The notes under the pieces are model-generated. The model searched no databases, was not told where the DNA came from, and worked only from the letters and a program-made list of their open reading frames with translations. Below are positions 7,612-59,092 of a stretch of 64,000 nucleotides of DNA, piece by piece (within the stretch, counting starts at the first letter, position 1; the number at the start of each line of letters is the position of its first letter). Origin of the DNA: an uncultured Pseudomonadota bacterium (lineage in GTDB: Bacteria > Pseudomonadota > Alphaproteobacteria > JACZXZ01); NCBI GenBank assembly GCA_963749075.1, contig CAVVLJ010000016.1, forward strand, positions 320,001-384,000. Reading direction: 5' to 3'. Made by a program: the position numbers and the translations under genes.

Positions 7612-8077
7612 TAGGCCGCATCATGACGATCAGATCGAAGGGAAACTCAAAGATCAAGAACGCGGCGGCCGTGCCGATGACGGCACTGGCCAGCGCGATC
7701 TTCCAGCCCCAACGCCGCGTGAGGTAGAGAATCACGAAGAAGGCCACCAGTGCGTCGACGAACGTAAACTTACCGACGATCACTCGGGGCGCGACGAAGC
7801 TCGGATAGGCCTGCTTCAGTTTCAGTCCATAGACGAGCGTGGCGACAATGACGGTGTAGAGCGCCAGCAGCCAGATCGCGATCATGAATGTGGCGGCTGT
7901 GCCTCCTGGCCGCGTGACCCTGAGCGGAGCACGCAGCCGTTTGCCGGCATGGGCAAATCCGCCGGCCACCACGAGCAGCACGATCGCCAGGAGGATCGCC
8001 TCGCCGCCGCCATAGGAAACCCAGGAGGCGGGCGCGTACGGCGGCGGCGCGGCTCCTTGGGCCTGCGCAAGCCACAT
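7612..8077 (-). pseudogene. Multi-pass membrane protein truncated by the IS5 element
   Basis: MWLAQAQ... with several hydrophobic segments; the frame runs directly into the IS terminal repeat after FEFPFDLIVMMRP. Confidence 0.6.
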
Positions 8078-23700: not shown

Positions 23701-24713
23701 TGGACCGTGAGGTCCGTGCCGGTGCCGCGATAGCCGAGGAAGGCGCCCTCGGGGTCGAAGAAGGGCACGCCGCTCACCTTGATGTGGCGGACGGCACCCT
23801 GGGCAGCCATGCGGTATTTGAAGTCGCGGAACGGCTCGTGGTGCGCCATCACCTCGGTCTGGCGCTGCCAGGCCGCCTCGTCGCCCGCGACGAGGGCGAT
23901 CTCCTCGTGCGTCTTGCCCAGGATGGCGAGCGCGTCGAGCCCCACCTTCTCGAGATAGCCCTTGGAGAAATAGGTGAAGCGGCCGCGCTCGTCCGTTTCC
24001 CACAGCCAGTCGGAGGAGGAGGAGGCGTAGTCGCGGAAGCGCTGCTCGCTGTCGCGCAGGCGCTCCTCGGTCAGCTCGCGCTCCGTCAAGAGCCGGTTGG
24101 CGCGGCCCATGCCGCGGAAGAGGAGGAGCAGGAGGAGCGTTCCCGCCACCGCCACCCCGGCGAAATAGATGACGAGGCGCAGGTAGGCCTCGCGCAGGCG
24201 CTGGCGCTGGCTCTCCACCAGCTGGTCGGCCTGCTGCAGGGTATTCACGGTGAGCGTGTTGAGCGGCCCGCTGAACAGGCGCAGGCCGTCGATGACGACC
24301 GCCGCCGCCGCGCGGTCGCCCTTCTTGAGGCCGGCGATCTCGGCGCCGATGGCATTGAGCCGCGCCACGAGATCGGTGACGATGCCCTCGGCGCCCTCGA
24401 TCTCGCGCAGCTTCGCCGCGTTGCCGCCCTCGTTCAGGCGCTTCAAGCGTCCGGCGAGCACGTCGAAGCGCAGCTGCAGCTCGTCGTGGTTGGTGGCCGA
24501 GTCGGGGATGGCGTACTCGCGCAGCGTATCGAGCAGGCGGAAGAGGTCGACCTCGGCCTCGGTCGGCGTCCACACCACGTTCTCCTCGGCCGTGCTGGAG
24601 ATCTGCTCTTCCTCGTTCAGTATCTTGTCGAAGCTGAAGAAGATGCTGGCCGAGAAGAGCGCGAGCGCCACGCTGAGGATGCCGTAGCCGCGAAAGCGCG
24701 TGAGAAGGCTCAT
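20769..24713 (-). CDS. Hybrid sensor histidine kinase (2 TM, three PAS, HisKA, HATPase, two REC, Hpt)
   Basis: FLATMSHEIRTPMNG, DPGRLRQILLNLAGNSVKFT, DTGIGI, GGTGLGL, VILMDVAMPEMDG and AHSLKSSSGTFG (Hpt) motifs. Confidence 0.95.
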   Translation of the reverse strand: MSLLTRFRGYGILSVALALFSASIFFSFDKILNEEEQISSTAEENVVWTPTEAEVDLFRLLDTLREYAIPDSATNHDELQLRFDVLAGRLKRLNEGGNAAKLREIEGAEGIVTDLVARLNAIGAEIAGLKKGDRAAAAVVIDGLRLFSGPLNTLTVNTLQQADQLVESQRQRLREAYLRLVIYFAGVAVAGTLLLLLLFRGMGRANRLLTERELTEERLRDSEQRFRDYASSSSDWLWETDERGRFTYFSKGYLEKVGLDALAILGKTHEEIALVAGDEAAWQRQTEVMAHHEPFRDFKYRMAAQGAVRHIKVSGVPFFDPEGAFLGYRGTGTDLTVQVEAEIEAMRARTLLAEAVESLDEGFAVFDPQDRLVQCNTRFREIYGEAGHGPEPGQHFETIMRGAAFRGAFPEALGREEAWVAERLAQHRQTHGPYDFRVKDGRWIQARETILENRWQVGTFIDITYQKRREEALRREALIWGQMSDGVIVTDLEGRITNWNPAAERMFGYPAAEAIGQTPRLLEGPDGHDLLATALAAVERQGGWSGEFAFRRKDGSAGTADTVVVPLRDDGGNRIAIIWVNHDITLRKESEVELVAAKEQAELASRAKSQFLATMSHEIRTPMNGMLGMIDLLLDAKLAREQQSYAETARKSGEALVAIIDDILDFSKMEAGKLDLEHAEFELRRLVEGVVDLLAPRALEKGVEIAAFIAPEVPDAVAGDPGRLRQILLNLAGNSVKFTEEGGVSLLVSLAEAAGRRARVKFEIVDTGIGIPEEQRHGLFAEFTQVDPSYSRRYGGTGLGLAISKKLTELMGGTIGFTSELGRGSTFWFTVELECRARAEGATPPLAALAQARVLVVDDNPVSAGILERQLAALGLAVTATGDPDTALVVLDGAARSRQPFALALIDQQLGGQSGEDLAAAIRRQSALAATRLVLLAPLGGRSEADAAAGRSFEAVLNKPVHQETLADALAQLAAAGKARGRISPRPRAAASRAVPQGAARRLARARLLLVEDSPVNQMVATAMLAKLVGAVDTAENGREAIAAVQAKDYDVILMDVAMPEMDGLEATRAIRAMPAPKGRVPIVAMTAHALESDRRRCLDAGMNDYVTKPIERAKLIETVARWLPQRASGEPAAAAPESALPENASPGSARGPFEKALEAALQAPGPETAAALREALEGALAPAAAAVAAGAVLEGGADTAALDDATLAQLEADTDAAVAQDLVKTFVLETVARVDHIAHAAEARDFATLEREAHSLKSSSGTFGALALAERAKAVEFACKNGEGETAVALAGNLPALVASAAHAMVRHFQAAG

Positions 24714-24786
24714 GGTCCTCCACATATACCATGCCCGGCATGGCGTTCACGAGAGCAAGTTCCCACGCGATTGGGCGCGGGGCACG

Positions 24787-45995: not shown

Positions 45996-46575
45996 CTTCA
46001 TCTCAGGAGCAGAGAGCCGGTCACGCTCTGGCTGCGACAGGTTTTGCGGCCGCTTTTCTTCCAGAATCGCCGCTGACACGGGGCCGGTGCGCGGCGCGGG
46101 CTCGCGCATGGCAGCGAGAGTATTTGCGTTGGGGGCAAACAGGCGCTCGTAATGGAGGACGCGGGCGGCCGCGTCGCCGGGGAGTGCCGCGACGAGCTCT
46201 CGATTGGGCGGGACATGCGCCTTCACCGCGAAGGCCCGCGAACGGGCCGTGTCCAACAGGATCTCGAGGACCTCGCCTTCAAGCGAACCCGGATAGTCGC
46301 GCGAGTTGAGCGTGATCTCGCGGCCGGCGATCGTCTGGCGCGTGGTCGGGTGGCCGACGGCCGACAGGCGAGGAGGGCTCCGGACGGCACCGGCCGTCCG
46401 GAGCGCCAAGAACGCGGGCGGTCAGAGGACCGGTGCGGATCCCGATACCGCTCCAGGGCTGGTGGTGTTGCCACCGACTAGGTTGTTCCCCGTGGAGAGC
46501 ACCGTCCCGCCACTGGCGGTCGATATGCCGGTGGTCGCCCGGGACGGCCAGCGCAGGGACGCATCACTCGCCCGA

Positions 46576-47538
46576 TCAGTTGAGCGGAGTGCCGGTGAGC
46601 GGCGTCCCATCGATCGTTGTGTTGCCGTTGATGCCGTTGTCTTTGTATGAATATATCGCGCCGCCGCCGGAGCCGACGCCGGTGGCGTTGAGCGTGACCG
46701 TCGAGTTGCCCATCAGGAGGGTAGAGCCCGTACCGTTCGCGATGACGCCTGTGGTGCCGTTGCCGACGGAGGCGCTGCGATCCATCATCACGAGCGGAGG
46801 CCGCCCGCCCGCCGGCCCGGTGACGGTGATGCCGGAGTTGGCGCTGCCCGAGACCACGGTGTCCCGGATGAGGAGTTCGATAAATGGGCCGGTGCTGCCC
46901 GTGCCGTCCGCCGTGATTCCGGACGCGTTCCCCTCCACGCGAATGCCGTCGAGGAAGGCTTGCGCAGAGCCGGATCCGTTCGGCTTGACCAGGATGCCGC
47001 CGCCGTTGGCGCCGCTGCCGTTGTTCGATATATAGGTGTCGGACACGAAGAGCTGGGCCGCGCCGGTGGGAGCGAAATTGATGCCGATCGCGGAGCCGCT
47101 ATTGAACCCGCGGATGATGCAATCCTCGACGTGCAGCAGCCCGGCCCCGGTGAAGCTGATTCCGATGAGCCCGGTCGTGACTCCCTCGAAATCCAAACCT
47201 TGCAGCTTCACGATGGATCCTGCGGGCGTGCTGACGGTAATGCCGTTGGTCCCCGACGCCAGCACGCCCGCCGTCCCGACTTGGCAGATGATGGCGATCG
47301 AATTGGTGATGGTGAGCCCGCCGAAGGCGCCGGGATCCAAGCAGTTGATCTCGCCAGCCACGGCCGTCTTCGAGATGGCGCCGGCAAAGGTCCTGCAGGG
47401 TGCGGTGCGGCTGCATGGATTGGCATCGTTACCGACGCCGGAAACCCAGGTCTGTGTCGCTTGAGCCTGAGCGGGTGCCGTGTGCAAGAGCGGCAGGCAT
47501 ACGGCGCCGGCGAAAGCCAAGACTGTCGAGATTCTCAT
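46576..47538 (-). CDS. Secreted right-handed beta-helix repeat protein
   Basis: Signal peptide ending AQA; TWVSGVGNDANPCSRTAPCRTFAGAI N-cap; repeated I-x-N/G strands. Confidence 0.85.
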   Translation of the reverse strand: MRISTVLAFAGAVCLPLLHTAPAQAQATQTWVSGVGNDANPCSRTAPCRTFAGAISKTAVAGEINCLDPGAFGGLTITNSIAIICQVGTAGVLASGTNGITVSTPAGSIVKLQGLDFEGVTTGLIGISFTGAGLLHVEDCIIRGFNSGSAIGINFAPTGAAQLFVSDTYISNNGSGANGGGILVKPNGSGSAQAFLDGIRVEGNASGITADGTGSTGPFIELLIRDTVVSGSANSGITVTGPAGGRPPLVMMDRSASVGNGTTGVIANGTGSTLLMGNSTVTLNATGVGSGGGAIYSYKDNGINGNTTIDGTPLTGTPLN

Positions 47539-47791
47539 GATCCTTCTCCCCTTGCTCGTCTGTAGATAGGTGAGCGCATTGGCACGCCACGTGATCTGGC
47601 GTTCGGCATGCCCAGGGCCTCGACCCGTCCGTGTCTTGCGGGGGGGGGGGGCGAAATCTGCCCTCTTTTCGCTCAATCGGCGTCGATTATACGCCCAATA
47701 TGTGATATCGCGTGCAATGCTGGCCCTTCCAGCTCGCGCGTCGGAAGAAAATCGCGAACTTCCCCTTCGGAGCACGCGAAAGGCGATCGGC

Positions 47792-47990
47792 TCAGGGATG
47801 GGCATGCGGCGGCAGGAGCGGCACCGGCGCCTCGATGCCGCCCTTGGTGAAGGCGACCGATTCCGCGGTGATGCGCTCGACGCGCCAGCCCTCGACCACG
47901 TCGCCGGTCCGCACCTGGTAGGATTTGCCCGTCGACTGCGAGACGATGAGCGCATCCTGCTCGCGTGCGGAAACCACGACCCCTTGAGCT
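47792..47990 (-). pseudogene. C-terminal remnant resembling a T2SS GspC/GspN or PilP-type domain
   Basis: GVVVSAREQDALIV...QVRTGDVVEGWRVERITAESVAF beta-strand pattern; no start, abuts an Rhs fragment. Confidence 0.5.
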
Positions 47991-48044
47991 GGAATTGCCG
48001 CGCACCGCCGTCTGCTTCGCCAGCCGAGGACGGCGGCGGCCGGC

Positions 48045-48535
48045 GCGTCGTCGAGCACGCGGCCGGCGGCGGTCGGCTTGTCGTAGCTGCCGCCGAAGAT
48101 CGAGCTCGCCTGCCCCGGGTAATTGAACCAGATGCGGTTCTCGAGCGGGTATTTGACGCTCTCGACGGCGGTCGATTTGACGGCCACGTTATAGACGTGC
48201 ACGAAATGCCGGTCCCGCGCCTTGGTGTAGTCGCAGCCGCCCGTAGGCGTGCAGCCCGCCGCGACGTAGGCGTCCTTGTCCCAATGGAAGCTGTCGCGGT
48301 AGGTGAGGTACTGGTTCGTCGTCGCCATGCCCTGCGGCACGGTCGCGGCCGCGTCGCTGTTCGTAGGCGAGCACGGCACTGCGGTTGAACGGATCGGTGA
48401 TCTCTGTCACCAGGAGGGGCTGGCCGACGCGGCCGTATGCGAAGGTGGTCTGCCGCCCGGCCGCGTCGGTGAGGGAGACGAGGCGCTCCTGGCCGTCATA
48501 GGTGAGCGTAAGCGCATTGCCTTGCGGGTCGATCC
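48045..48535 (-). pseudogene. Internally deleted Rhs core fragments
   Basis: IDPQGNALTLTYD...PFNRSAVLAY and NQYLTYRDSFHWDK...PLENRIWFNY...AAGRVLDD are diverged copies of about 54210-54935, with the middle missing. Confidence 0.85.
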
Positions 48536-48544
48536 AAGTGTCGT

Positions 48545-49126
48545 TCAATGTTCCGACTTCGCGTAAGCCTGCAGCAGCTTATTGCGCCATTCTAGCGGCA
48601 ACACGCGTTGAGAAAGTCCATAACTGGGAGGGTTCTCGATGGCTTTGTCAATAGGCAGAGCATTGAGCTGTACGATCACCGACCTGAATATGTCGTGCAC
48701 TCCGTTCTCGCGAACCGCGAGCACTGCTATTTCGTTATTTCTTTCGCAATAAATGCACCAGCGGTTGGCGTCGGACGTGCACCCATAACGATCCATTTGA
48801 TATAGCCATCCAGAGCCGATACTAGAACCACGTATGAGCGACATGTAGGTCTCAGTTCCCATGCTTCCATCCAGAAACAGAGAGGCTTGCTCCAGATCGC
48901 CCTTAGCACGTGCTTCTTCTAGGTTAGTCAAACAGGCACAAGATCCACCCTCTTCTCCGAGAAGGATTCCAACTCGTCCAACAAATTGGGGCTCGAAAAT
49001 CCATTCAGGGTCAAAGAAAAAAAATTGATCCCAGCCGTTCCGAAAAACATTTTTGGGGAATCGGCAGTCGAGCCTTAGCTCCGTGCTTAGGTTTGATAAG
49101 GCCTTTTTTCTCAGATCATCGTACAC
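48545..49126 (-). CDS. Putative immunity protein for the orphan Rhs tip
   Basis: 193-aa AT-rich ORF immediately downstream of the orphan Rhs C-terminus; function inferred from position only. Confidence 0.65.
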   Translation of the reverse strand: MYDDLRKKALSNLSTELRLDCRFPKNVFRNGWDQFFFFDPEWIFEPQFVGRVGILLGEEGGSCACLTNLEEARAKGDLEQASLFLDGSMGTETYMSLIRGSSIGSGWLYQMDRYGCTSDANRWCIYCERNNEIAVLAVRENGVHDIFRSVIVQLNALPIDKAIENPPSYGLSQRVLPLEWRNKLLQAYAKSEH

Positions 49127-49178
49127 CGAGCTTCTCCGATCGTCGCAAATAACAAGTCAAAACCATCTTGGTCATGTC

Positions 49179-51063
49179 TCACGGGCCGCCTAACCGAATC
49201 TTCAACAGTGTTCGCCCAGCTGAATTAAATACCTGAGCGCTCGCTTCTCCTGTGCTGGTCGCCGTGTATATTGTGTAGGTTGTCTCGCCATTGCTAAGGG
49301 TAATAAACGGGCCGTTCGTTGAGACTCCCTGTCTTACAATGTTAAATCCCATCGAGGTTAGATTAGTTTCAAAATCTGTCGCCGTCACATCGGTCCCGAT
49401 ATTGAGAATTTCGCCGGTCTGTGCAATCGTATCGTCCCAAAGTGATGTAGCTCCCGCTTCCTCTGCCGCGGCTATACCTTCCTCGGCGACCGCCAGCTCC
49501 GGTGCCACCAAGCCGAGCGTGGCGCCCAGCGCTGCTCCAATACCAGCAGCAGCGGCGACTTGGCCCCAGTTCACGCACCCGAGATTGCCGCCGTTACCGT
49601 AGAGCTGCGCCGCCAGATCACCGAAACCACCGAGAAGGGCGCCGACCCCGGCACCGACGAGGCCGAACCTCCCGCTTGGATCTGTTAGGCTGACCGGGTT
49701 GCCGTTGACATAACGGTACAGATTTGCGGCCGGATCGCTCCTTTCGCCAAAGGTGTCGCGCGAGAGCCATCGCCCGGAGACGGGGTCGTAGGCCCGGTAT
49801 TGCGTCAGGTACAGCCCGCTGTCGGAGTTGTAGAACATGCCGGCGTAGTTGAAGTCGGTCACCGGCGCCGTGGTCTGCAGCGGGTTGCCGTAGGGGTCGT
49901 AGGCGTAGGCCGGCGCGCTCGTGGCGCTGGCGAAGGCGCGGCGCACCGAGCCGAGCTGGTCGGGGCCGTAGTAATAGGGCTGCGCCGGGGTGCCCGGAAC
50001 GAGCTCGCCCTCGGCAACATATTCCCGCGTCGGTGCATTGGCGGCGTTGCGCGCCTGGCAGATGCGGCCGCCGCACCAGAGGTAGGAGGTGGCGACCGCA
50101 CCGCTGCCGCCGGCGGCGCGGCTATGATGGCGCGCCCGCGAGATGAAGGAGCTCGTGATCGGGGCGCCGCCGCCCCAGAGCGTGCTCGTGATCGCGGTGC
50201 GCCGGCCGAGCCCGTCGTAGGCGAAGGCGGTCCGCTTGCCCGTCTGCCCCGGATATCCCGGATAGCCGATGGCGAGGAGCCGGTTCTCGGCGTCCCAGGC
50301 GTAGGTGCGCAGCCCGTCGGAGAGCAGGTTGCCGTTGGCGTCGTAGGTGAAGGGCTGGCCCGAGAGGCTGGTCAGCGCATTGACGTTGTTGTAGCCCGCG
50401 GTCTGAGTCCCCGGGCTCGGATAGACGGTCGGGCTGTCGCTCGTCTCGCTGATGGCGGCGATGAAGTTCTCGGGCGTCGTGGTGTAGGCGTAAGTCGAGT
50501 ACTGGCCCGAGGAGAGCCCGACGTTGCTGATCCCCGCAAGGCGGCGGTCGCCCGAGTTGGGGAGATAGCTCCAGGTGGTCGCCAAGGTCGAGCTCGCGAG
50601 CTGGCGGCTCGTGATCTGCCCGGTCTGGCCGAGGTAGGCGAGCGCGAAGGCGCCGAGGTCGCTCGCGTGGCTGGTGAGCCGGCCGATGGCGTCGTAGCCG
50701 AAGGTCTCGGCCCCGGCGGCGCCGACGGTGCGCGAGGCGAGCCGCCCGAGCGCGTCATAGACGTAGCTGATGGCACTCACCGGCAGCGCGCTGCTCTCCT
50801 GCCGCAGGCGCAAGGCGCCGAGCGAGCCTATCGCGACATAGGCGTAGCTCGTGGTGCCGGTGCCGTCCGCCATCGAGACGAGGCGCGGGAAGTAGGGGTC
50901 GTAGGCGAAGGCGACGTTGGGCGTGGGGTTGGCCGCGTTGAGATAGGCGATGCCGGCCAGCCGGTCGTCCTCGAAGTAGCTGTATTGCTTCACCTGCGCG
51001 AGGGCGTCGGTGACCGATGCGAGGCGGCTCGTGGTGCTCTCGTAGGCGTAGCCAAAATCCATT
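49179..51063 (-). CDS. Orphan Rhs module (partial core plus variable C-terminal toxin)
   Basis: About 1.35 kb nearly identical to 52130-53475; YLTQYRAYDPVSGRWLSRD...YVNGNPVSLTDPSGR followed by a distinct tip. Confidence 0.88.
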
Positions 51064-51212
51064 CTGATCCAACAATTTCTCACCGATCGACGTGCAATTA
51101 CACGAAGCCTACTCCCAATCAACCCCGAGCCCTCATTCGTCCAGTTACGCCGCTCTGGGACCATGCGCCGATTGCATAGCGTGCTGACTCGCGGTCGAAG
51201 CGCTGCATCCAA

Positions 51213-51503
51213 TCATCGGTCCGACCCTTGCGACCTTTCTTTGGCTTTCGATATGTCGAATCCACATTGTCGACAACTAACTGGAAAGAACGGCGTAGCC
51301 AACCGGGTCGGTGGAAACAGGCGCGCCCGACATCGAGGGCAACGAAAGCGAGCGGCGTAGATATAAAACGCAGGAACTATACATGACGGGGCAAGGAGAT
51401 AGATCCAACCGTTCGCATTTAGAAGGTGCAGGGTTTCGAACGCGATGAGGAGCGCGATCAAGCCGGCTGTTTGGGCTATATGCAGCTTCGTCGTGACGCT
51501 CAT
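51213..51503 (-). CDS. Putative immunity protein (2 TM plus CxxC...CxxC)
   Basis: Directly downstream of the main Rhs; two hydrophobic segments, then CPRC and CRQC. Confidence 0.6.
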   Translation of the reverse strand: MSVTTKLHIAQTAGLIALLIAFETLHLLNANGWIYLLAPSCIVPAFYIYAARFRCPRCRARLFPPTRLATPFFPVSCRQCGFDISKAKERSQGSDR

Positions 51504-51580
51504 ACTAGGCCTTCGCGATGCGCGTTTATCACAAGGTCCGATTAGATCACGTCGGCGCCATTGCGCTTGCCGCTGCTCCT

Positions 51581-54500
51581 TTAGGGGCCAAGTATGAAAC
51601 GATGGCTGACCCCTGGAATGGATGCCGCAGGACCAATCCGCGTCGCTGCGGCGGTATCTCCGTTCGCTGCCGCCAATGCAGCGGTTACTGCGCCGGTCGT
51701 CTCATAGGTCGTAGATTGTTGAACACTCATGGCTAATGGAACGCCAGTTAGTGCCTGTACTCCGGATGCGCCAATCGATATCTGGAATCCCGACGGATTT
51801 TGATAGCTGGACGGCTGACTCGGATTGAAATTTGCGCCATATGTCGGTCCACCTCCAATTGGACCACGTGCTCCCGCAAATGCACTTCCGAACTGATTTC
51901 CAAAAAAATTCTCCGGTCCGCCGAATGTGTTCTGGAGAATAATGTTTGCCGAAATGTCCACGCCGCCCCCACAACCAATAGTGGCAAACGTGCCAAATCT
52001 TCCGGTATCGGTGTTGAAGTAGATACCAGCAGTGATCGAGCCTCCGCCGCCGAAAAATCCGCTCAGGTTCAGTCCAAGCGACCATGTATCCAGACCGCCG
52101 GGATCGGTGTTATTTAGCGGATCATTATTGACATAGCGGTACAGATTTCCGGCCGGATCGCTCCTTTCGCCAAAGGGATCGCGCGAGAGCCATCGCCCGA
52201 TGGCCGGATTGTAGGCCCGGTACTGCGTCAGGTAGAGCCCGCTGTCGGCGTTGTAGAACATCCCGGCGTAGTTGAGGTCGGTGACCGGGGCGGTCGCCTG
52301 GAGCGGGTTGCCGTAGGGGTCGTAGCTGTAGGCCGGCGCGCTCGTGGCGCTGGCGAAGGCGCGGCGCACCGAGCCGAGCTGGTCGGGGCCGTAATAATAG
52401 GGCTGCGCCGGGGAGCCGGGGACTACCTCGCCCTCGGCAACATATTCCCGCGTCGGCGCATTGGCGGCGTTCCTTGCCTGGCAGATGCGCGCGCCGCACC
52501 AGAGGTAGGAGGTGGCGACCGCACCGCTGCCGCCGGCGGCGCGGCTATAGTGGCGCGCCCGCGAGATGAAGGAGCTCGTGATCGGGGCGCCGCCGCCCCA
52601 GAGTATGCTCGTGATCGCGGTGCGCCGGCCGAGCCCGTCATAGGCGAAGGCGGTCTCCTTGCCGGTCTGCCCCGGATATCCCGGATAGCCGATGGCGACG
52701 AGGCGGTTCTCGGCGTCCCAGGCATAGGTGCGCAGCCCGTCGGAGAGCAGGTTGCCGTTGGCGTCGTAGGTGAAGGGCTGGCCCGAGAGGCTGGTCAGCG
52801 CGTTCACGTTGTTGTAGCTCGCGGTCTGGGTCCCCGTGGTGGGGTACACCGTGGCGCTGTCGCTCGTCTCGCTGATGGCGGCGATGAAGTTCTCGGGCGT
52901 CGTGGTGTAGGCGTAGGTGGAGTACCGGCCCGAGGAGAGCCCGACGTTGCTGATCCCGGCGAGGCGGCGGTCGCCCGAGTTGGGGAGATAGCTCCACGTG
53001 GTCGCCAAGGTCGAGCTCGCGAGCTGCCGGCTCGTGATCTGCCCGGTCTGGCCGAGGTAGGCGAGCGCGAAGGCGCCGAGGTCGCTCGCGTGGGAGGTCA
53101 GCCGGCCGATCGCGTCGTAGCCGAAGGTCTCGGCCCCGGCGCCGCCGACGGTGCGCGAGGCGAGCCGCCCGAGCGCGTCATAGACGTAGCCGATGGCGCT
53201 CACCGGCAGCGGGCCGCTTTCCTGCTGCAGGCGCAAGGCGCCGAGCGAGCCTATCGCGACATAGGCGTAGCTCGTGGTGCCTGTGCCGTCGCTCATCGAG
53301 ACGAGGCGCGGGAAGTACGGGTCGTAGGCGAAGCCAACGTTGGGCGTGGAGTTGGCCGCGTTCAGATAGGCGATGCCGGCGAGCCGGTCGTCCTCGAAGT
53401 AGCTGTATTGCTTGACCTGCGCGAGGGCGTCGGTCACCGTCTTGAGGCGGCTCGTGGTGTTCTCGTAGGCGTAGGCGATGGTGCTGCTGTCGGCGTATTG
53501 CTTCGCCGTGAGCCGGCCCTCAACGTCGTAGCTCCAGCCCGTGACGTTGCCGTTGGGGTCGGTCAGGCCGGTCAGCTCGCCGATGCCGTTGTAGGCGAAG
53601 AGCGTGCGGTTGCCGAGGGGGTCGGTGATCGCGGTCAGGCGGCGGTCGGCATCGTGGGCATAGAGCCACGTCCGGAACTGGCGGTCCTGGTAGGAGGCGA
53701 GATCGAGATTGTCGTAGGTGTAAATGTCCGTCGTGCCGTCGGGGTAGGTTATCTTCGTGACGCGGTCGGCGGCATCATAGCCGTAGGCGACGGTCCAGCC
53801 CTCGGAATCCGTGTAGCTCGCGACCCGGTCGAAGGCATCGTAGGTGAAGCTCGCGGCGGTGGCGCCGTTGGCGTTGACGATGGCGCTCAGATCGCCCGCG
53901 GCGTCGTACTGGAAGCTCGTCGTCTGGTTGAGCGCGTTGGTGAGGGAGGTGAGCTGCCCGGCGGCATTGTACGCATAGCTCGTGGTCTCGCCCGCCGCGT
54001 CGGTATAGAGGAGCGGCCGGTGGTGGCTGTTGTAGGTGAACTGGGCGACCGGCGTCTGGATGCCGGGCGCCGTGGTCTGGCTGACCGTGGCGAGATCGAC
54101 GTGGTTGGCGGCATAGGCGAAGGAGGTGGTGCGGCCGAGGGGATCGATGGCCTGGGTGAGATTAAAGAAGCCGGCCGCGTCGTAGGAGAACTGGCGGAGC
54201 TGGGTCGAGCCGTCGTCGAGCACGCGGCCGGCGGCGGTCGGCTTGTCGTAGATGCCGGCATCGGTGGAAAACGGCTGCCCCACATAGTTGAACCAGATGC
54301 GGTTCTCGAGCGGGTATTTGACGCTCTCGATGCTGGTCGATTTGACGGCGATACGGGGCACGTGCAGGAAATGCCGGTCCCGCGCCTTGGTGTAGTCGCA
54401 GCCCCCGCTCGCGGTGCAGCCGGCCACGACGTAGGCGTTCTTGTCCCAATGAAAGCTGTCGCGCGTGTCGAGATATTGGTTCGTCACCGCCAAGCCTTGC

Positions 54501-56473
54501 GGCAGCGTGTTGCCGGCATCGCTGCCCGGGACCCCCGGGATCGGCGCCGGGGGGTTCTCCAGCCATTCCTCGCGCTCGTTGAGGCCCAGCGGGTCGGTCA
54601 CTTGCACGAAGCGCGGCGGGGCGCTCGTGCCGGGTGCCGTGTAGGCGAAGCTCGTCGTGCCGTAGGGCGTGGTCATGGCATCGACGAGCGAGTTGGCGTC
54701 GTAGCTGAAGCTCGAGGTCAAGCCGAGCACGTCAGTGATCGAGACGAGGCGGCCGTAGAGGTCGTAGGTCAGGACGGCACTGCGGTTGAAGGGATCGGTG
54801 ATCCCGGTCACGAGCAGCGGCTGGCCGATACGGCCGTAGGCGAAGGTCGTTTGCCGTCCGGCTGCGTCGGTCAGCGAGACGAGCCGCTCCTGGTTGTCGT
54901 AGCTGAGCGTGAGCGCGTTGCCTTGCGGGTCGATCATCTGGCTCAAGAAGACGTTGCGCGGAAAGGCGGTGCTGCCGTCGGATTGGGCATAGACCTCGAT
55001 GCTCCCGTCCCGCAGCTGGCGCTGATAGTTGACCGGCGTCTCGGACTTGAGCACCAGGATGGAGCCGTCATTGTCCTGGGCTGTGAACTGGCCGGTGCTG
55101 CCGTTATAGCCGCTGTATTGGAAGGAACCTCCGCCGGCGAGATAACGCGTGACGCGGGCACCCGGATTGGTCGGGTCGTCCGTCACATAAGTGAGCCAGT
55201 TCAGCGTCCACTTCTGGCTGACGTTGAAGAAGGCGAAGTTCGCCGGCTGGCTGTCCTCGCGCTGGTTATAGGTGATACGGGTTTTCGCCGAGGGCCCGAT
55301 GGGCGGGTCGTAACCGACCGGCACGTCGGACAAGGTGACGCTGACGGTCAATTCGCCGATATTGTAGCCGCACAGCGGGCAGGTGCCGGACGCATTCGCT
55401 TGCACATCCCTGGCGCCGGCAGCGCCCGGGGCCGTGCTGCTCGTCGGACCCCTCCCCCACACGCCGCCCGCCTCCTTCTCGTCCACCGCCCTCCAGCCGG
55501 CGCCGTCCTGAGCGCCGGCCGGCGCCAGGAAATAGCCGCTCGCCTCCTCGTCGAGCGCCGCCGCCGTGACCCAAAGCTCCTGGCCCGCGAAGACCGGGTC
55601 CGCGACCTGGAAGCGGCCATTGGCCTGGCCGGTGATTGCGGCAAAATGGCCGAGCTTCCAATGCACGATCGAGGGCACCGGCACCGGTTGGCCCGGCTTG
55701 CGGAAGACCAGGCGGTGGGGAAACTTCGTCTCCTCGGCGAGATGCGCCACCTCCGAGAGGCTCGTGCCGTTCGGCCCGGCGCGATACCACTGGAGGGACA
55801 GGACCTGTGCCTGCTTGGCGCCCTGCGCGAGCATCAGCGAGCCGAGCGCCAGCGGGCCGCAATTGAAGAGGTATCGGGGGTTGCTCTTGGCCAGCGACAG
55901 CTCCTCCCGTGCGGCTTGCACCGCTTCGGTCGCGGAGCCGGTCACCGGACGATCGCCGATCTCCTCGAAGAGGGCTGCGAGGCTCTCGACATGCCCGAGG
56001 GCGCCATGGAGCCGCGCGAGCTCGCCGACCGCCCGGTCGACGAGTGCCTTGGCCTGCGGCTCGGTGGCGCCTTTGCCCTCGTGCCAAGCCTGGTTCCAGG
56101 CGTCGAGTGCCCGCGAGAAATAGCCGTAATGGAGGTAGGAGATGCCGAGATTGGTGAGCAGCGCCGCGGCCCAGCCCGAATGCGGATAGCGCGCCAGGAA
56201 GGCGGTGAGGCTGCCAACGTCGTCGGGTGTGGCGCGCTTGCCGTAGGCCGCCAAGGCCTGCAGGAGGGCCTGGTCTTCCGCGGGCGTGGTGGGGCCGGTC
56301 GCCATGAGCGGCTCGGCAAGATGCGCGGCCCGGATTGCCGCCGCGACGGGCTCGGCGGTGCCGGGAGCGCTCGCCGCCTCTGCCGCACGCGGGAGGCATG
56401 CTGCGTACAACAGCAGCAGCGCCGCCATGGCGATCGAGGCCGCGAACAAGGCCGGCCGCCTCGGCAGCTTCAT
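51581..56473 (-). CDS. Rhs/YD-repeat protein with signal peptide, TPR-like helices and a C39-like peptidase domain
   Basis: MKLPRRPALFAASIAMAALLLL...AEA signal; NCGPLAL, VHWKLGHFAAI and VADP C39-like residues; many YD repeats; core RAYNPAIGRWLSRDP...PLNNTDPGGL. Confidence 0.92.
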   Translation of the reverse strand: MKLPRRPALFAASIAMAALLLLYAACLPRAAEAASAPGTAEPVAAAIRAAHLAEPLMATGPTTPAEDQALLQALAAYGKRATPDDVGSLTAFLARYPHSGWAAALLTNLGISYLHYGYFSRALDAWNQAWHEGKGATEPQAKALVDRAVGELARLHGALGHVESLAALFEEIGDRPVTGSATEAVQAAREELSLAKSNPRYLFNCGPLALGSLMLAQGAKQAQVLSLQWYRAGPNGTSLSEVAHLAEETKFPHRLVFRKPGQPVPVPSIVHWKLGHFAAITGQANGRFQVADPVFAGQELWVTAAALDEEASGYFLAPAGAQDGAGWRAVDEKEAGGVWGRGPTSSTAPGAAGARDVQANASGTCPLCGYNIGELTVSVTLSDVPVGYDPPIGPSAKTRITYNQREDSQPANFAFFNVSQKWTLNWLTYVTDDPTNPGARVTRYLAGGGSFQYSGYNGSTGQFTAQDNDGSILVLKSETPVNYQRQLRDGSIEVYAQSDGSTAFPRNVFLSQMIDPQGNALTLSYDNQERLVSLTDAAGRQTTFAYGRIGQPLLVTGITDPFNRSAVLTYDLYGRLVSITDVLGLTSSFSYDANSLVDAMTTPYGTTSFAYTAPGTSAPPRFVQVTDPLGLNEREEWLENPPAPIPGVPGSDAGNTLPQGLAVTNQYLDTRDSFHWDKNAYVVAGCTASGGCDYTKARDRHFLHVPRIAVKSTSIESVKYPLENRIWFNYVGQPFSTDAGIYDKPTAAGRVLDDGSTQLRQFSYDAAGFFNLTQAIDPLGRTTSFAYAANHVDLATVSQTTAPGIQTPVAQFTYNSHHRPLLYTDAAGETTSYAYNAAGQLTSLTNALNQTTSFQYDAAGDLSAIVNANGATAASFTYDAFDRVASYTDSEGWTVAYGYDAADRVTKITYPDGTTDIYTYDNLDLASYQDRQFRTWLYAHDADRRLTAITDPLGNRTLFAYNGIGELTGLTDPNGNVTGWSYDVEGRLTAKQYADSSTIAYAYENTTSRLKTVTDALAQVKQYSYFEDDRLAGIAYLNAANSTPNVGFAYDPYFPRLVSMSDGTGTTSYAYVAIGSLGALRLQQESGPLPVSAIGYVYDALGRLASRTVGGAGAETFGYDAIGRLTSHASDLGAFALAYLGQTGQITSRQLASSTLATTWSYLPNSGDRRLAGISNVGLSSGRYSTYAYTTTPENFIAAISETSDSATVYPTTGTQTASYNNVNALTSLSGQPFTYDANGNLLSDGLRTYAWDAENRLVAIGYPGYPGQTGKETAFAYDGLGRRTAITSILWGGGAPITSSFISRARHYSRAAGGSGAVATSYLWCGARICQARNAANAPTREYVAEGEVVPGSPAQPYYYGPDQLGSVRRAFASATSAPAYSYDPYGNPLQATAPVTDLNYAGMFYNADSGLYLTQYRAYNPAIGRWLSRDPFGERSDPAGNLYRYVNNDPLNNTDPGGLDTWSLGLNLSGFFGGGGSITAGIYFNTDTGRFGTFATIGCGGGVDISANIILQNTFGGPENFFGNQFGSAFAGARGPIGGGPTYGANFNPSQPSSYQNPSGFQISIGASGVQALTGVPLAMSVQQSTTYETTGAVTAALAAANGDTAAATRIGPAASIPGVSHRFILGP

Positions 56474-56508
56474 CTTCCACGCTCCGGGCGCCCGGAGAGC
56501 TCGCGCTA

Positions 56509-56808
56509 TCAGGGCGTCCAAGTGAAGCAACCCCATACGCCCGTGCCCCATGTCGGCTGCTCGGGCGCGCTGGAGATGGTATTGGTTTGCGCTGTCCGAT
56601 TGCCGTTCGCGTCGTAGCTGTAGGCGATGCATAGGCCGTTGTCGTAAAGACCCGTCGTGAGGCGCCCAAGCTGATCGTAGGTGTAGGAAACCGAGCCGAT
56701 CGCGCCGCCGGGAATCAAGATGCCGAGCAACGCCAGCAGCGCAGCCGCGACGCGCGCTCTTGCGGGCTCAATCGTCACGCGATCGTCTTCCGGGCGCATG
56801 GGGCTCAT
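56509..56808 (-). CDS. Small secreted YD-repeat protein
   Basis: Hydrophobic signal AAALLALLGILIPGGAIG, then SYTYDQLGRL...YSYDANGNRT and a WGTGVWGCFTW tail. Confidence 0.8.
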   Translation of the reverse strand: MSPMRPEDDRVTIEPARARVAAALLALLGILIPGGAIGSVSYTYDQLGRLTTGLYDNGLCIAYSYDANGNRTAQTNTISSAPEQPTWGTGVWGCFTWTP

Positions 56809-56813
56809 CAAGG

Positions 56814-57767
56814 TCAGGGGTAGGTGATTTCCAGCGAATCGATGGTGATATTCGTGTCGATCCCGCCGCCTTGTCCACCGCACATGATGCCGGCGTAGGC
56901 GATGGGCGCCCCGATCCACGAATTGTTATCGGAGTTGGTTTCGGCCCAGACGCGGCCGTTCTGGCTGATATAGAAGCTGTTGCCGGACGACGTGCTGACG
57001 ACGCGCAGCCAGATGGCGTCCGAATAGGTGATGGCGACACGCGACGAACTGGCATAGGTCCAGCCCGCATTCCAGTAGCTCCACTCGTTCGACAATCCAC
57101 CGGTATAGATCGCCGTGAACATCTGGACCTTGCCGCCGGTCATGGCTGACGAGGCGAGCACGATACCCTGGACCTGATAGTTCACGGCGACGAGGCTGGG
57201 CCGTATTCTCGCCGTGATGGTGAAGCTCGTCGCGGTGACGGGCAGCATTAGCCCTGCATATGCGGAATTCGACACCGGGTTGGTGAAATTCACGAAATTG
57301 CCGTCCTGCACGGCCGTCGCGGTCCCCTGCACCATCCAGACCATATTCGCCAGCACCGGCGGCGTGAAGGTCGCGTCCGAGCCGTTGTTCCCGGCCGCCC
57401 CGCCGCCGGTGATCGTAATGCTGCCGGGGCCATTCGTGATGGCGATACCCGATCCCGCGGTCAGCGTCGTCGCTTGCGGAGGTCCCCCGCTCGAGCCGAT
57501 GGCGAGCTGACCGTTGGTCAAGGGACCGGCGCCGCCGAAATTTCCGGCGCCGCCGTTATATTGAACGGCGTTGGCAGCACCCCCGGGGGCGGCGTTGTTG
57601 ACGCAAGCCAACAGCGCATTGAAATTTGCCATGACCTGCGAAGCGTCCGCGGTCTGGCCGTTGGTGAATTGATAGGGCAGCGTGCACTCCGCCTCGGCGG
57701 CATTGCTACCAGGCAAGATCACGCAGGCGAACGCCGAGAGCGCCGCGAGAACGGAATTCCATCGCAT
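56814..57767 (-). CDS. Secreted tail-fibre-like protein with a probable C-terminal beta-sandwich/lectin domain
   Basis: GAGG RBS; signal ending AEA; FTNGQTADASQVMANFNAL, AVQYNGGAGNFGG and LTAGSGIAITNGPGSITI segments; aromatic beta-rich C-terminus. Confidence 0.7.
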   Translation of the reverse strand: MRWNSVLAALSAFACVILPGSNAAEAECTLPYQFTNGQTADASQVMANFNALLACVNNAAPGGAANAVQYNGGAGNFGGAGPLTNGQLAIGSSGGPPQATTLTAGSGIAITNGPGSITITGGGAAGNNGSDATFTPPVLANMVWMVQGTATAVQDGNFVNFTNPVSNSAYAGLMLPVTATSFTITARIRPSLVAVNYQVQGIVLASSAMTGGKVQMFTAIYTGGLSNEWSYWNAGWTYASSSRVAITYSDAIWLRVVSTSSGNSFYISQNGRVWAETNSDNNSWIGAPIAYAGIMCGGQGGGIDTNITIDSLEITYP

Positions 57768-58017
57768 GACGTTACCCTCGCATGCTTGCACGGATCGGCC
57801 CGCGCAGCATGTCGGATAACCTACGATTATGTACACGTATCAGTCGAGTAAATTTATGACGACAATATGATAGATTGTCAGATTATGCAGGCATTCACCA
57901 TGGCGCGCATGGATCGAGCTTATTGCGCAGCCTATGCGCGTTCGTTTGTTTTTGCCCTTGCGCTGCGCTTATGTTCATGATACGTTCCAAGCCGCGTGCA
58001 GCGACGGAGGGCGGGCG

Positions 58018-58440
58018 ATGGAGCGCGATCCCGATTGCATCTTCTGCAAGATCGCGGCGGGCGAGGCGCCGTGCTTCAAGCTCTACGAGGACGCGGCGAC
58101 GCTCGCCTTCATGGACATCAACCCGGCGAACGAAGGCCATTGCCTGGCGATTCCCAAGGCGCATTTCGTGGACATCTACGGGGCGTCCCCGGGCGAGGTG
58201 GGGCGGGTGGCCGAGACCGCGCGCAAGGTGGCGAAGGCGGTGCGCGACGTGGTCAGGCCCGACGGCCTCAACCTCGTGCAGTCGAACGGTCCGGGTGCGG
58301 CCCAGTCGGTCATGCACTTCCACATCCACGTGCTGCCGCGCACGAGCGGCGACGAGCTCAAGATCAACTGGCCGCTCGTGCCGGGGGACCGCGTGGCGAT
58401 CGGCTTGCTCGCCGAGAAGATCAGGGCGAGGCTCTCTTAA
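58018..58440 (+). CDS. HIT family nucleotide hydrolase
   Basis: DCIFCKI, AFMDINP and QSVMHFHIHVLPR motifs. Confidence 0.95.
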   Translation: MERDPDCIFCKIAAGEAPCFKLYEDAATLAFMDINPANEGHCLAIPKAHFVDIYGASPGEVGRVAETARKVAKAVRDVVRPDGLNLVQSNGPGAAQSVMHFHIHVLPRTSGDELKINWPLVPGDRVAIGLLAEKIRARLS

Positions 58441-58457
58441 GCGCGGGCGTGCGTGCC

Positions 58458-58697
58458 ATGGTCAAGCTCAAGGTCATCGCGGTCGGCAGCTCGCTCGGCG
58501 TGGTGTTGCCCAAGGCGGTGCTGGCGCGCCTCAAGGTGGCGAAGGGCGATTGCCTGTTCTTCACCGAGGCGCCGGACGGCTTCCGGGTGACGCCCTACGA
58601 TCCCGACTTCGAGCGGCAGATGGTACTCGCCCGCCGCATCATGGGCGAGCGCCGCGACGTGCTCAGGGCGTTGGCCAGGAGGGAACTGGCCAAATGA
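58458..58697 (+). CDS. AbrB/MazE-type antitoxin
   Basis: LKVIAVGSSLGVVLPK, TPYDPDFERQM and RRDVLRALA motifs. Confidence 0.88.
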   Translation: MVKLKVIAVGSSLGVVLPKAVLARLKVAKGDCLFFTEAPDGFRVTPYDPDFERQMVLARRIMGERRDVLRALARRELAK

Positions 58698-59092
58698 GCG
58701 GGCGCGCCTGGCGCTGGCTCGGCGAAGAGGCGGCGCTCGCCATCCACGATGCGCAGTTGGCCGAGCATGGCGGTGCCGGCGGCCCCGGCGAGCGCGCCCT
58801 CGTGCAAGCGGCCTTGGCGCGCCCGCGCCGTCTCGCGGCCGGGGGCGAGCCGGACGCGGCGGAGCTTGCCGCCGCTTACGCCTGCGGCCTCGCGCGCACG
58901 GAGGGCTTCGCGGACGGCAAGAGGCGGACGGCCTACGTGGCGGCACTCGCCTTCTCGCTCGACAACGGCTACCGGTTCACCGGCGGCGACGTCGAATCCG
59001 CCGAGGCGATGCGGGCGCTCTCCGCCGGCGACATGACGGAGGAGGAGCTCGCCCGCTGGTTCCGCGCCCGGCTGGTCGCGGCCGGGTCCTGA
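58694..59092 (+). CDS. Doc/Fic-family toxin with a degenerate active site
   Basis: IHDAQLAEHGG, SALARP-like and LAAAYACGLAR segments; the Fic motif reads EGFADGKRRTA; ATGA coupling to the antitoxin. Confidence 0.82.
   Translation: MSGRAWRWLGEEAALAIHDAQLAEHGGAGGPGERALVQAALARPRRLAAGGEPDAAELAAAYACGLARTEGFADGKRRTAYVAALAFSLDNGYRFTGGDVESAEAMRALSAGDMTEEELARWFRARLVAAGS

Follow-up and report, generated by a model that had tools for sequence, protein, structure and literature searches.

A tail-fibre-like lectin, a small YD-repeat protein and a Sec-type Rhs protein with a C39-like N-terminal domain form a candidate secreted toxin module in an uncultured alphaproteobacterium

How can an Rhs toxin leave a diderm cell, and enter another, when it is not carried by a type VI secretion system (T6SS)? 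Few bacterial toxin carriers are as common as the Rhs cocoons, and the characterised Gram-negative Rhs toxins are mostly delivered by T6SS. To our knowledge, Gram-negative Rhs delivery is understood only for the T6SS and the Tc systems. The question is raised by three neighbouring genes in a 64,000-nucleotide stretch of DNA, in the following called the window, which comprises positions 320001-384000 of a contig (CAVVLJ010000016.1; C16) in the genome of an uncultured alphaproteobacterium of the lineage JACZXZ01 (the producer genome, G000). The genes encode a tail-fibre-like protein, a protein of about 100 residues with two YD repeats (mini-YD) and a large Rhs protein. The reading favoured here, with moderate confidence, is that the locus is a polymorphic Rhs toxin-immunity island in which a Sec-exported, T6SS-independent Rhs protein and two secreted accessory proteins would constitute one conserved functional module. 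The sequence and its comparison with relatives also show an orphan cassette of a predicted toxin and a putative immunity gene, which would be available for tip switching.

The three genes are found on the minus strand, in the same orientation and closely packed, when the most plausible ATGs are taken as starts. The fibre gene (56814-57767, 317 aa) was delineated from its ORF, an alignment, a structure model and Foldseek, the mini-YD gene (56509-56808, 99 aa, about 61 aa in the mature protein) from its ORF, an RHS_repeat match and an alignment, and the Rhs gene (51581-56473, 1630 aa) from its ORF, Pfam and NCBIfam matches and a model of its N-terminal domain. Five nucleotides separate the fibre stop codon from the mini-YD ATG, and 35 the mini-YD stop codon from the Rhs ATG. 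The span 51581-57767 and the gene sizes in the initial annotation, which had been made from the sequence only, proved exact. It had also described all three genes as starting with signal-like sequences, and this holds: at the N-terminus of each protein an n-region with basic residues precedes a hydrophobic core and a small-x-small site, and a heuristic for such signals was passed by all 30 fibre homologues, by 20 of 26 for mini-YD and by 42 of 46 for Rhs. The failures, which include six mini-YD proteins, look like truncated gene calls.

The Rhs protein matches RHS_repeat in nine stretches (209.5 bits, Pfam) and YD_repeat_2x with 163.4 bits (NCBIfam), while the Rhs-associated core TIGR03696 (Rhs_assc_core) scores 73.9 bits against a cut-off of 32.5. 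Its signal peptide of n/h/c build (aa 1-33, nt 56375-56473) is followed by a TPR-like helical domain (aa ~53-200, from the model and Foldseek) and a C39-fold peptidase domain (aa ~200-343, nt ~55445-55876) with the residues Cys205, His276 and Asp292. A linker and then the plug and YD shell, assigned from the repeat matches, lie between the C39 domain and the core (aa 1384-1461, nt 52091-52324), which ends in D-P-G-G-L, and the protein closes with a predicted toxin of 169-170 aa (nt 51584-52090). Two residues of the core, D1432 and D1457, which we take to be its catalytic pair, are invariant in 46 relatives. The toxin tip contains 32 glycines and almost no charged residues, and no Pfam family matches it. 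The C-termini differ among the relatives, and three of five scanned homologues carry Tox-REase-9, Ntox37 and PT-HINT; since relatives bear different tips, the family is polymorphic in the usual sense. Judged by its composition, the tip in the window is most likely directed at a membrane.

After the signal-like start the Rhs protein has a conserved region of about 310 residues. The initial annotation had pointed to a hidden PAAR or other T6SS-loading domain as something to be looked for here; Pfam and NCBIfam searches of the Rhs protein found no PAAR, VgrG or other T6SS-loading part, and a TPR-like domain and a C39 fold occupy the place instead. In the AlphaFold2 model of the region (pTM 0.76, pLDDT mostly 79-97 over model residues 21-310), an alpha/beta domain succeeds a domain of helical repeats. 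Foldseek relates the helical part to TPR proteins and the alpha/beta domain to C39 domains (6mpz, 5xe8/5xe9, 3k8u, 3b79, 7n87) with E values of 8e-4 to 1.4e-2 and TMt of 0.56-0.68; LahT, ComA and PCAT1 are among these matches. Cys205, His276 and Asp292 are at least 95% conserved in 120 homologues, and no exception to the Cys/His/Asp set occurs in 23 sequences that represent alpha- and gammaproteobacterial, acidobacterial, verrucomicrobial, melainabacterial, fibrobacterial and gemmatimonadal records. Three relatives (P0023, P0075, P0093) match Peptidase_C39 at 22.5-24.8 bits, above the Pfam cut-off, and the database names of relatives include 'peptidase C39'. Because fold and catalytic residues match, the modelled N-domain is regarded as C39-like, outside the context of an ABC transporter; no ABC transporter domain was found in the Rhs protein by Pfam or NCBIfam. 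It thus shares the fold and the Cys/His/Asp spacing, with 16 residues from His276 to Asp292, with the bacteriocin-processing peptidases LahT, ComA and PCAT1, but is not fused to a transporter and is predicted to be periplasmic rather than cytoplasmic.

The mini-YD protein consists of the signal-like start, two YD repeats (RHS_repeat, 31.3 bits) and a Trp/Gly-rich tail, W-G-x-G-x-W-G-C-x-x-W. An exhaustive profile-free search returned mostly giant Rhs proteins by way of their repeats, besides stand-alone relatives. The latter comprise at least 25 cluster representatives of 70-138 aa, 46-65% identical to the copy in the window (alignment A2), each of which aligns end to end in one stretch. The invariant columns are D45, G48, R49, C60, Y63, D66, N70, W87, G93 and W97; C94 is nearly invariant, and a disulfide between C60 and C94 could be formed. 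A protein atlas in addition contains 'RHS repeat' proteins of 85-99 aa, in clusters of 58-81 members each. The stand-alone relatives, the conserved columns and the atlas clusters identify mini-YD as a real conserved family of small proteins and not a stray Rhs fragment. In two relatives (P0366, P0372) the Trp/Gly-rich tail motif occurs twice in tandem. A W-G-x-G motif common to the Rhs linker and the mini-YD tail was considered and dropped, only the glycine being invariant across phyla. The earlier suggestion that mini-YD completes or caps the YD shell is a guess; the protein may instead be a small unit that binds glycans, or may act on the peptidase domain as its ligand or inhibitor.

The fibre protein has a signal-like start, an N-module (aa 27-135) with two invariant cysteines and a C-domain (aa ~135-317). 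No Pfam or NCBIfam family matches it, and its 127 relatives are all unnamed and, except for two single matches, likewise without Pfam families. Compared with the copy in the window, the N-module of every one of the 29 aligned relatives shows 42-80% identity, and the C-domain shows 66-85% in six of them and only 13-26% in the other 23. In the monomer model the C-domain (aa 135-317) has pLDDT values of 79-95, and residues 61-130 have values of 42-54. Foldseek classifies the modelled C-domain as a ConA-like lectin/glucanase beta-sandwich jelly roll (3o12 and 3mep, E 5.6e-9 to 5e-8, TMt 0.73-0.74; legume lectins are matched as well). The N-module matches 200 stretches of IMG/VR viral contigs, and three of four tested viral ORFs with this module match PHROG tail fibre or tail proteins. 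The match between the window's fibre and phrog_31660, a tail fibre family, is weak (22.3 bits), and tblastn against 50,697 GenBank phage records gave no match; the link to phage fibres is the one given by the IMG/VR contigs and the PHROGs.

Given these sequence and model comparisons, 'tail-fibre-like lectin' appears to be a fair description. The combination of a conserved phage-fibre N-module and a swappable lectin C-domain fits a targeting part, so that the fibre has the build expected from the earlier proposal of a target-binding role. By analogy with phage fibres that have the same N-module, the protein is probably trimeric. Three tandem fibre paralogues precede the Rhs gene in a metagenome-assembled genome of Reyranella (locus L006, 4756-7700) and in Rhizobium sp. 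C4 (locus L016, 4867-7960), and all of them keep the conserved N-module. A double-glycine cleavage site for the C39 domain was also looked for in the N-module. It was rejected, as a phage tail fibre without a C39 partner (L049) bears that motif too. A pair of small residues at this place is GG in 17 of 30 sequences by our own count in the fibre alignment, and a GG in the mini-YD signal region is found in the window's copy only.

Are the three genes found together elsewhere? When the mini-YD alignment was used as seed in metagenomes, 14 true family loci were obtained after repeat-only matches (L043-L045) had been dropped. A peptidase-Rhs gene directly follows mini-YD in 13 of 13 assessable loci, one locus (L038) being left out for having no downstream sequence. 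Six of these Rhs proteins carry the C39 domain and seven, likewise signal-peptide proteins, a Transglut_core N-domain that scores 28-29 bits, above the cut-off. In all 12 mini-YD loci in which this could be assessed, a gene with the fibre N-module is found no more than about 1.5 kb upstream. It is co-oriented in the C39 class, whereas it runs divergently in the transglutaminase class. The latter can be seen as a sister class (L035-L042), in which a signal-peptide Rhs with a transglutaminase-like N-domain occurs together with a mini-YD gene and a fibre with the same N-module. The C-terminal part of one of these fibres (L036) is a phage Tail Collar domain (57 bits), and two other fibres of the class matched no family when scanned.

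A second search, seeded with the Rhs N-domain, gave 25 genome loci in which all ORFs were scanned with the family HMMs. Of these, 21 could be assessed, three (L009, L011, L014) having too little flank and one (L028) being a fragment. Both mini-YD and fibre genes are present in four of the 21 (L004, L005, L006, L016), all alphaproteobacterial; the locus L004 comes from an unpublished genome, G406. Full-length mini-YD genes score 82-143 bits with the family HMM, compared with at most 27.5 bits for repeats inside Rhs genes. The order fibre, mini-YD, Rhs is kept in G129, L004, L006, L029, L030, L032 and L033, and also in L031, where the C-end of the fibre is present. Conservation of the trio in other genomes, which the initial annotation had made its test by neighbourhood search, is thereby confirmed for several genome and metagenome loci. 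The genome G129, of the same genus and 100% complete, keeps the trio order and encodes a fibre with a different C-domain and 42% identity overall. In a sample of 401 genomes of the class, the Rhs N-domain and fibre profiles match the same two, G000 and G129; these are kin, and the co-occurrence therefore counts as one observation. Gene order is not rigid, as seen in L005, L016 and the transglutaminase class.

One search gave more than 570 relatives of the C39-Rhs, a family that occurs in rhizobia, Burkholderia, Reyranella, acidobacteria, verrucomicrobia and other groups. A giant secreted protein of 960-2442 aa is encoded directly upstream of the C39-Rhs (start near 7700-8000) in loci of fibrobacterial, verrucomicrobial, gemmatimonadal and melainabacterial origin (L017-L024, L026), and in most of them (L017, L020-L024) it ends in A-P-x-I-T-L-x-x-P-x-N-A before the Rhs gene. 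The one giant protein scanned, that of L021, contains fn3, Laminin_G_3 (ConA-like) and Big_7 domains, and with its ConA-like domain it suggests that a carbohydrate-binding partner may be a general theme. In two acidobacterial loci (L010, 967-1680; L012, 7002-7718) a secreted protein of about 237 aa is encoded upstream of the C39-Rhs; its C-terminus resembles a PEP-CTERM sorting signal.

By which route, then, would the Rhs protein be exported? No T6SS or Tc genes were found in the window, in which TcA was not searched for separately, and the earlier statement that PAAR, VgrG, Hcp, EagR and Tc genes are absent from it stands within that scope. All RHS repeats of the G000 genome lie in this locus. 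The genome has no match to SpvB (TcB) and none to DcrB/DUF1795 (EagR-type), and no TcA-like protein turned up in the Pfam scans of the locus, although no search aimed at the TcA family was made. The T6SS parts of G000 are not linked to the locus: TssC is found on contig C20, VgrG and Hcp on C17, and the sole PAAR at C16:507418, about 131 kb from the Rhs locus. TssC is present in two of the six genomes with the trio, G000 and the unpublished G406, and gave no match in the other four, namely the 100%-complete G129 and G404, G407 and G408, whose completeness is not given. Two of four further genomes with a C39-Rhs and no trio (G401 and G402, completeness not given) also lack a TssC match. With four of six trio genomes, the complete one included, devoid of a TssC match, T6SS independence is the better reading, as the initial annotation had proposed. 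Sec export and T6SS independence of the Rhs protein are well supported.

The type II secretion system (T2SS) fared differently. GspD exceeds the curated cut-off in G000 and G129 only, and secretin-domain matches in the other four trio genomes, for which completeness is not given, are all sub-threshold; the call for G406 is again from the unpublished genome. Dependence on a classical T2SS, which had been considered earlier, is thus not supported. The Sec signals and the occurrence in genomes without a T6SS together call for some other exit from the producer and some other entry into the target.

Further genes of the island follow on the minus strand beyond the Rhs gene. A gene for a 96-aa protein (51213-51503) is, by its position, the putative immunity gene. 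The protein has two hydrophobic helices and a CxxC...CxxC ribbon, its match to NCBIfam ECs_2282_CxxC is weak (16.3 bits, below the cut-off), and in view of its composition it is most likely embedded in the membrane. The next ORF (49179-51212, 677 aa; Rhs_assc_core 73 bits) is a copy of Rhs aa ~1000-1460 with a different C-terminal toxin. In a BLASTP alignment of 504 aa it is 85% identical to the Rhs protein, almost every mismatch lying ahead of about aa 1000, and since the sequence diverges after the core, past a T-D-P motif, the ORF is an orphan toxin tip. Its putative immunity gene, again named from position (48545-49126, 193 aa), matches no Pfam or NCBIfam family. Decayed Rhs remnants are found in two overlapping frames at 47792-48548, which resemble Rhs aa ~510-575 and ~650-760; the frame 48189-48548 matches RHS_repeat with 46.4 bits, and RHS_repeat matches are located at C16:368390-368536. 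Beyond the remnants, 46576-47400 (minus strand) encodes a signal-peptide protein with Gly/Thr/Asn-rich repeats that resemble a right-handed beta-helix; no Pfam or NCBIfam family and no relative in other loci was found for it. Both immunity proteins, the tip of the window's Rhs and this beta-helix-like protein have no relative in any other fetched locus, and they are therefore placed outside the conserved module.

The region 46000-58000 has a GC content of 0.59-0.67, compared with 0.70-0.74 on either side; in 2-kb bins, most of the window lies at 0.66-0.74 and the part from 46 to 58 kb at 0.59-0.67. This fits a horizontally acquired island between ppdK and a HIT gene. The flanks are housekeeping or unrelated genes, with glyS and ppdK upstream on the plus strand and the HIT and Fic/Doc genes on the other side, and Pfam scans of the window gave no phage genes around the locus, where the neighbours are ppdK, HIT and Doc. 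Three frames lie on the plus strand at 57934-59092. The first belongs to the HIT family (87.7 bits), the second is small and has the look of an AbrB/MazE-like antitoxin, and the third contains a Fic/Doc domain (28.7 bits); the last two, at the border of the island, are likely a Phd/Doc-type pair. The intergenic region 57768-57933, upstream of the trio (minus strand), is visibly richer in AT than its surroundings of roughly 68% GC, has a GAGGG Shine-Dalgarno-like motif before the ATG at 57767, and is probably the promoter region of the operon. A scan of 46000-58500 found no sigma-70 consensus sites, the consensus being of little use in a GC-rich organism, and terminator-like sites were at chance level; the promoter scan is uninformative for the same reason of GC content. 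Far from the island, 20769-24725 (minus strand) encodes a hybrid sensor kinase of 1318 aa with PAS, HisKA, HATPase, two receiver domains and Hpt. The three sequencing runs listed for the window sequence are DNA-type soil and lake metagenomes, and no RNA run is among them.

A mechanism can be proposed from these parts. All three proteins would enter the periplasm through Sec, where their conserved cysteine pairs could form disulfides. The fibre would join the Rhs complex through its conserved N-module, and its exchangeable ConA-like lectin domain, as modelled, may bind a glycan on the surface of the target cell. Mini-YD would be an adaptor or assembly factor, or possibly a regulator, for the peptidase-Rhs; the adaptor role is suggested by its invariable position before the peptidase-Rhs, whether the N-domain of the latter is C39 or transglutaminase-like. 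The papain-like N-domain, apparently a C39 or transglutaminase-like peptidase active in the periplasm, may process the complex, either itself or a partner, and the Rhs core would cut the toxin loose inside the shell. The Gly-rich uncharged toxin would most likely attack a membrane, and the membrane-embedded immunity protein would shield the producer. A bolder picture, which is offered tentatively and is in all its parts rather unlikely, is a self-contained, fibre-guided Rhs particle made of the phage-derived lectin fibre, the mini-YD adaptor and the toxin-filled YD cocoon. Such a particle would be assembled outside the cytoplasm, perhaps be fixed or released by the papain-like N-domain, leave the cell without T6SS or classical T2SS, and dock on target glycans.

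Several observations weigh against the favoured module. The signal peptides were called with a home-made hydrophobicity/AXA script and not with SignalP, and toxicity and immunity are read from position and composition only. The Peptidase_C39 match of the window's own Rhs is 19.7 bits, under the Pfam cut-off of 22, and when solved structures were searched by sequence with this N-domain, the matches were at chance level and included no C39 chain. The accessory pair is absent from 17 of 21 C39-Rhs loci and is thus not needed family-wide; alphaproteobacterial loci (L007, L008, L013) are among those without mini-YD and fibre. The fibre gene lies downstream of Rhs in L005, mini-YD is divergent and non-adjacent in L016, and the fibre gene of the transglutaminase class is transcribed divergently. 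Finally, the producer genome does have a T6SS, the use of which is possible in this strain, and an outer-membrane route is not evident, GspD exceeding the cut-off in only two of the six trio genomes.

The presence of a T6SS sheath, Hcp, VgrG and one free-standing PAAR in the producer, together with the use of T6SS by most characterised Gram-negative Rhs toxins, would agree with the Rhs protein being T6SS cargo, its hydrophobic N-terminus serving as a membrane anchor or chaperone-bound segment and its TPR/C39 region loading it onto VgrG. This is very unlikely, as no PAAR, VgrG or EagR-type family is found in or beside the Rhs gene, the T6SS genes are unlinked, and four of six trio genomes, including the 100%-complete one of the same genus, have no TssC match. 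In 42 of 46 Rhs relatives the N-terminus is also built like a cleaved signal peptide, with n, h and c regions, and both accessory proteins bear signals and conserved cysteine pairs too. A Sec-exported Rhs protein could instead act alone, like WapA, with fibre and mini-YD as mere neighbours left over from a prophage tail or from Rhs recombination. The 17 of 21 assessable C39-Rhs loci without both genes speak for it, as do the frequency of the fibre N-module in viral contigs and the habit of Rhs loci to gather fragments, as in the remnants at 47792-48548. It is nevertheless an improbable account: mini-YD is a conserved family that has a signal peptide of its own, residues that do not vary, and a tail not seen in Rhs repeats, a peptidase-Rhs of one of two N-domain types follows it in 13 of 13 assessable loci, 12 of 12 have a fibre N-module gene as well, and no phage genes surround the locus.

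Eukaryotic glycans are frequent ligands of ConA-like lectin folds, and the window sequence is found in soil metagenomes. The module could accordingly be a small Tc-like complex directed at amoebae, fungi, nematodes or plants, in which the lectin fibre binds host glycans; a multi-component YD-cocoon system with a separate binding protein would suit such a role. The genome, however, has no SpvB/TcB match, and the Pfam scans of the locus showed no TcA-like protein. Each tip is succeeded by an immunity-like gene, and there are orphan cassettes, as is typical of toxins able to harm the producer's kin; relatives bear nuclease-type tips. We give this target little credence. Still less can be said for a periplasmic or surface Rhs with a non-toxin role in regulation or adhesion and the small protein as its ligand, which we find highly improbable. 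Its precedent is the pair Bd0108/Bd0109, in which a small protein binds an RHS protein, both being exported by Sec, according to the passages available (PMC4267844), and the fact that an outer-membrane route is not evident in the trio genomes would be in keeping with it. Unlike Bd0109, the Rhs of the window has a full core with conserved Asp residues, a variable tip, an immunity-like gene and orphan cassettes, and the tips of the family include known toxin domains. The secreted three-protein toxin module thus remains the favoured reading.

When it comes to known systems, the T6SS Rhs effectors such as RhsA and Tse15 have the same YD shell, core ending in D-P-x-G-L, polymorphic tip, immunity gene and orphan cassettes. 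These effectors are linked to PAAR, VgrG or clade domains, while the Rhs of the window has a Sec-type signal, TPR and C39 domains in place of PAAR, VgrG or prePAAR, and no EagR, and its family occurs in genomes without a TssC match. The Tc (ABC) complexes also combine a toxin-holding YD cocoon with a separately encoded binding component, but in the window the partner is a 317-aa lectin fibre and not a pentameric injection channel, and immunity genes are present. Export by a signal peptide and T6SS independence are shared with the Gram-positive Rhs/YD protein WapA, as described for it (PMC12704120); WapA acts from a monoderm cell wall, while the system of the window has an outer membrane to cross and two accessory genes.

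Many signal-peptide RHS toxins have been listed under 'T2SS', and transglutaminase and papain-like processing peptidases tabulated together with RHS, in the main-text passages of Zhang et al. (2012; PMC3482391). Those toxins resemble the one of the window in their RHS repeats, signal peptide, diverse tips and N-terminal or pre-toxin processing peptidases. C39 occurs in these passages as a C-terminal toxin domain (Tox-PL-C39), whereas it is N-terminal in the window, and the passages contain no N-terminal C39-Rhs, mini-YD or fibre partner, although the additional files may list such proteins (Zhang et al., 2012; PMC3482391). Bacterial teneurin-like proteins, in the portions consulted of the work on them, are YD-shell toxins with Sec signals, adhesion domains and immunity proteins in several phyla (PMC13018210). 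Their adhesion domains are fused in cis, while the binding part in the window is a separate fibre and the N-terminus a peptidase; the teneurin-like superfold includes further teneurin parts (PMC13018210), which were not looked for in the window's Rhs. In Bdellovibrio bacteriovorus, Bd0108, of about 100 aa, and the RHS protein Bd0109 are both exported by Sec and meet as interaction partners in the periplasm, again in the passages cited above (PMC4267844). There, Bd0108 is intrinsically disordered and without homology to known families, which by description sets it apart from mini-YD as a conserved family of YD repeats and Trp tail, and Bd0109 lacks core and toxin.

A literature search outside whose reach most subscription journals and supplements lay found no report of a module of fibre, mini-YD and C39-Rhs and no paper that treats both peptidase C39 and the RHS repeat. 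The initial annotation had called the system undescribed. That term has to be qualified, as signal-peptide Rhs proteins are already known from the main-text passages of the 2012 survey (PMC3482391) and databases give relatives the name 'peptidase C39'; it is the module of fibre, mini-YD and peptidase-Rhs that was not found in print. The accessory pair of fibre and mini-YD is apparently undescribed. A polymorphic Rhs toxin system is as such not new; what differs here is the conserved accessory pair and the T6SS-independent route that would be initiated by Sec.

Were the fibre-guided particle to exist, it would be a further mode of Rhs delivery beside T6SS, the Tc complexes and the Gram-positive WapA/T7SS systems (T7SS, type VII secretion system). 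Its target range would be determined by the exchangeable fibre heads and the tandem paralogues of the fibre. The module in any case allows a direct test of how Rhs proteins are delivered without a T6SS in diderm bacteria, a question still open, the handles being the accessory pair, one member of which has the architecture of a phage receptor-binding protein, and the N-terminal peptidase. If the fibre does set the target range, the module could explain strain-level competition in soil and rhizosphere communities, and it might also be a source of retargetable parts for protein delivery.

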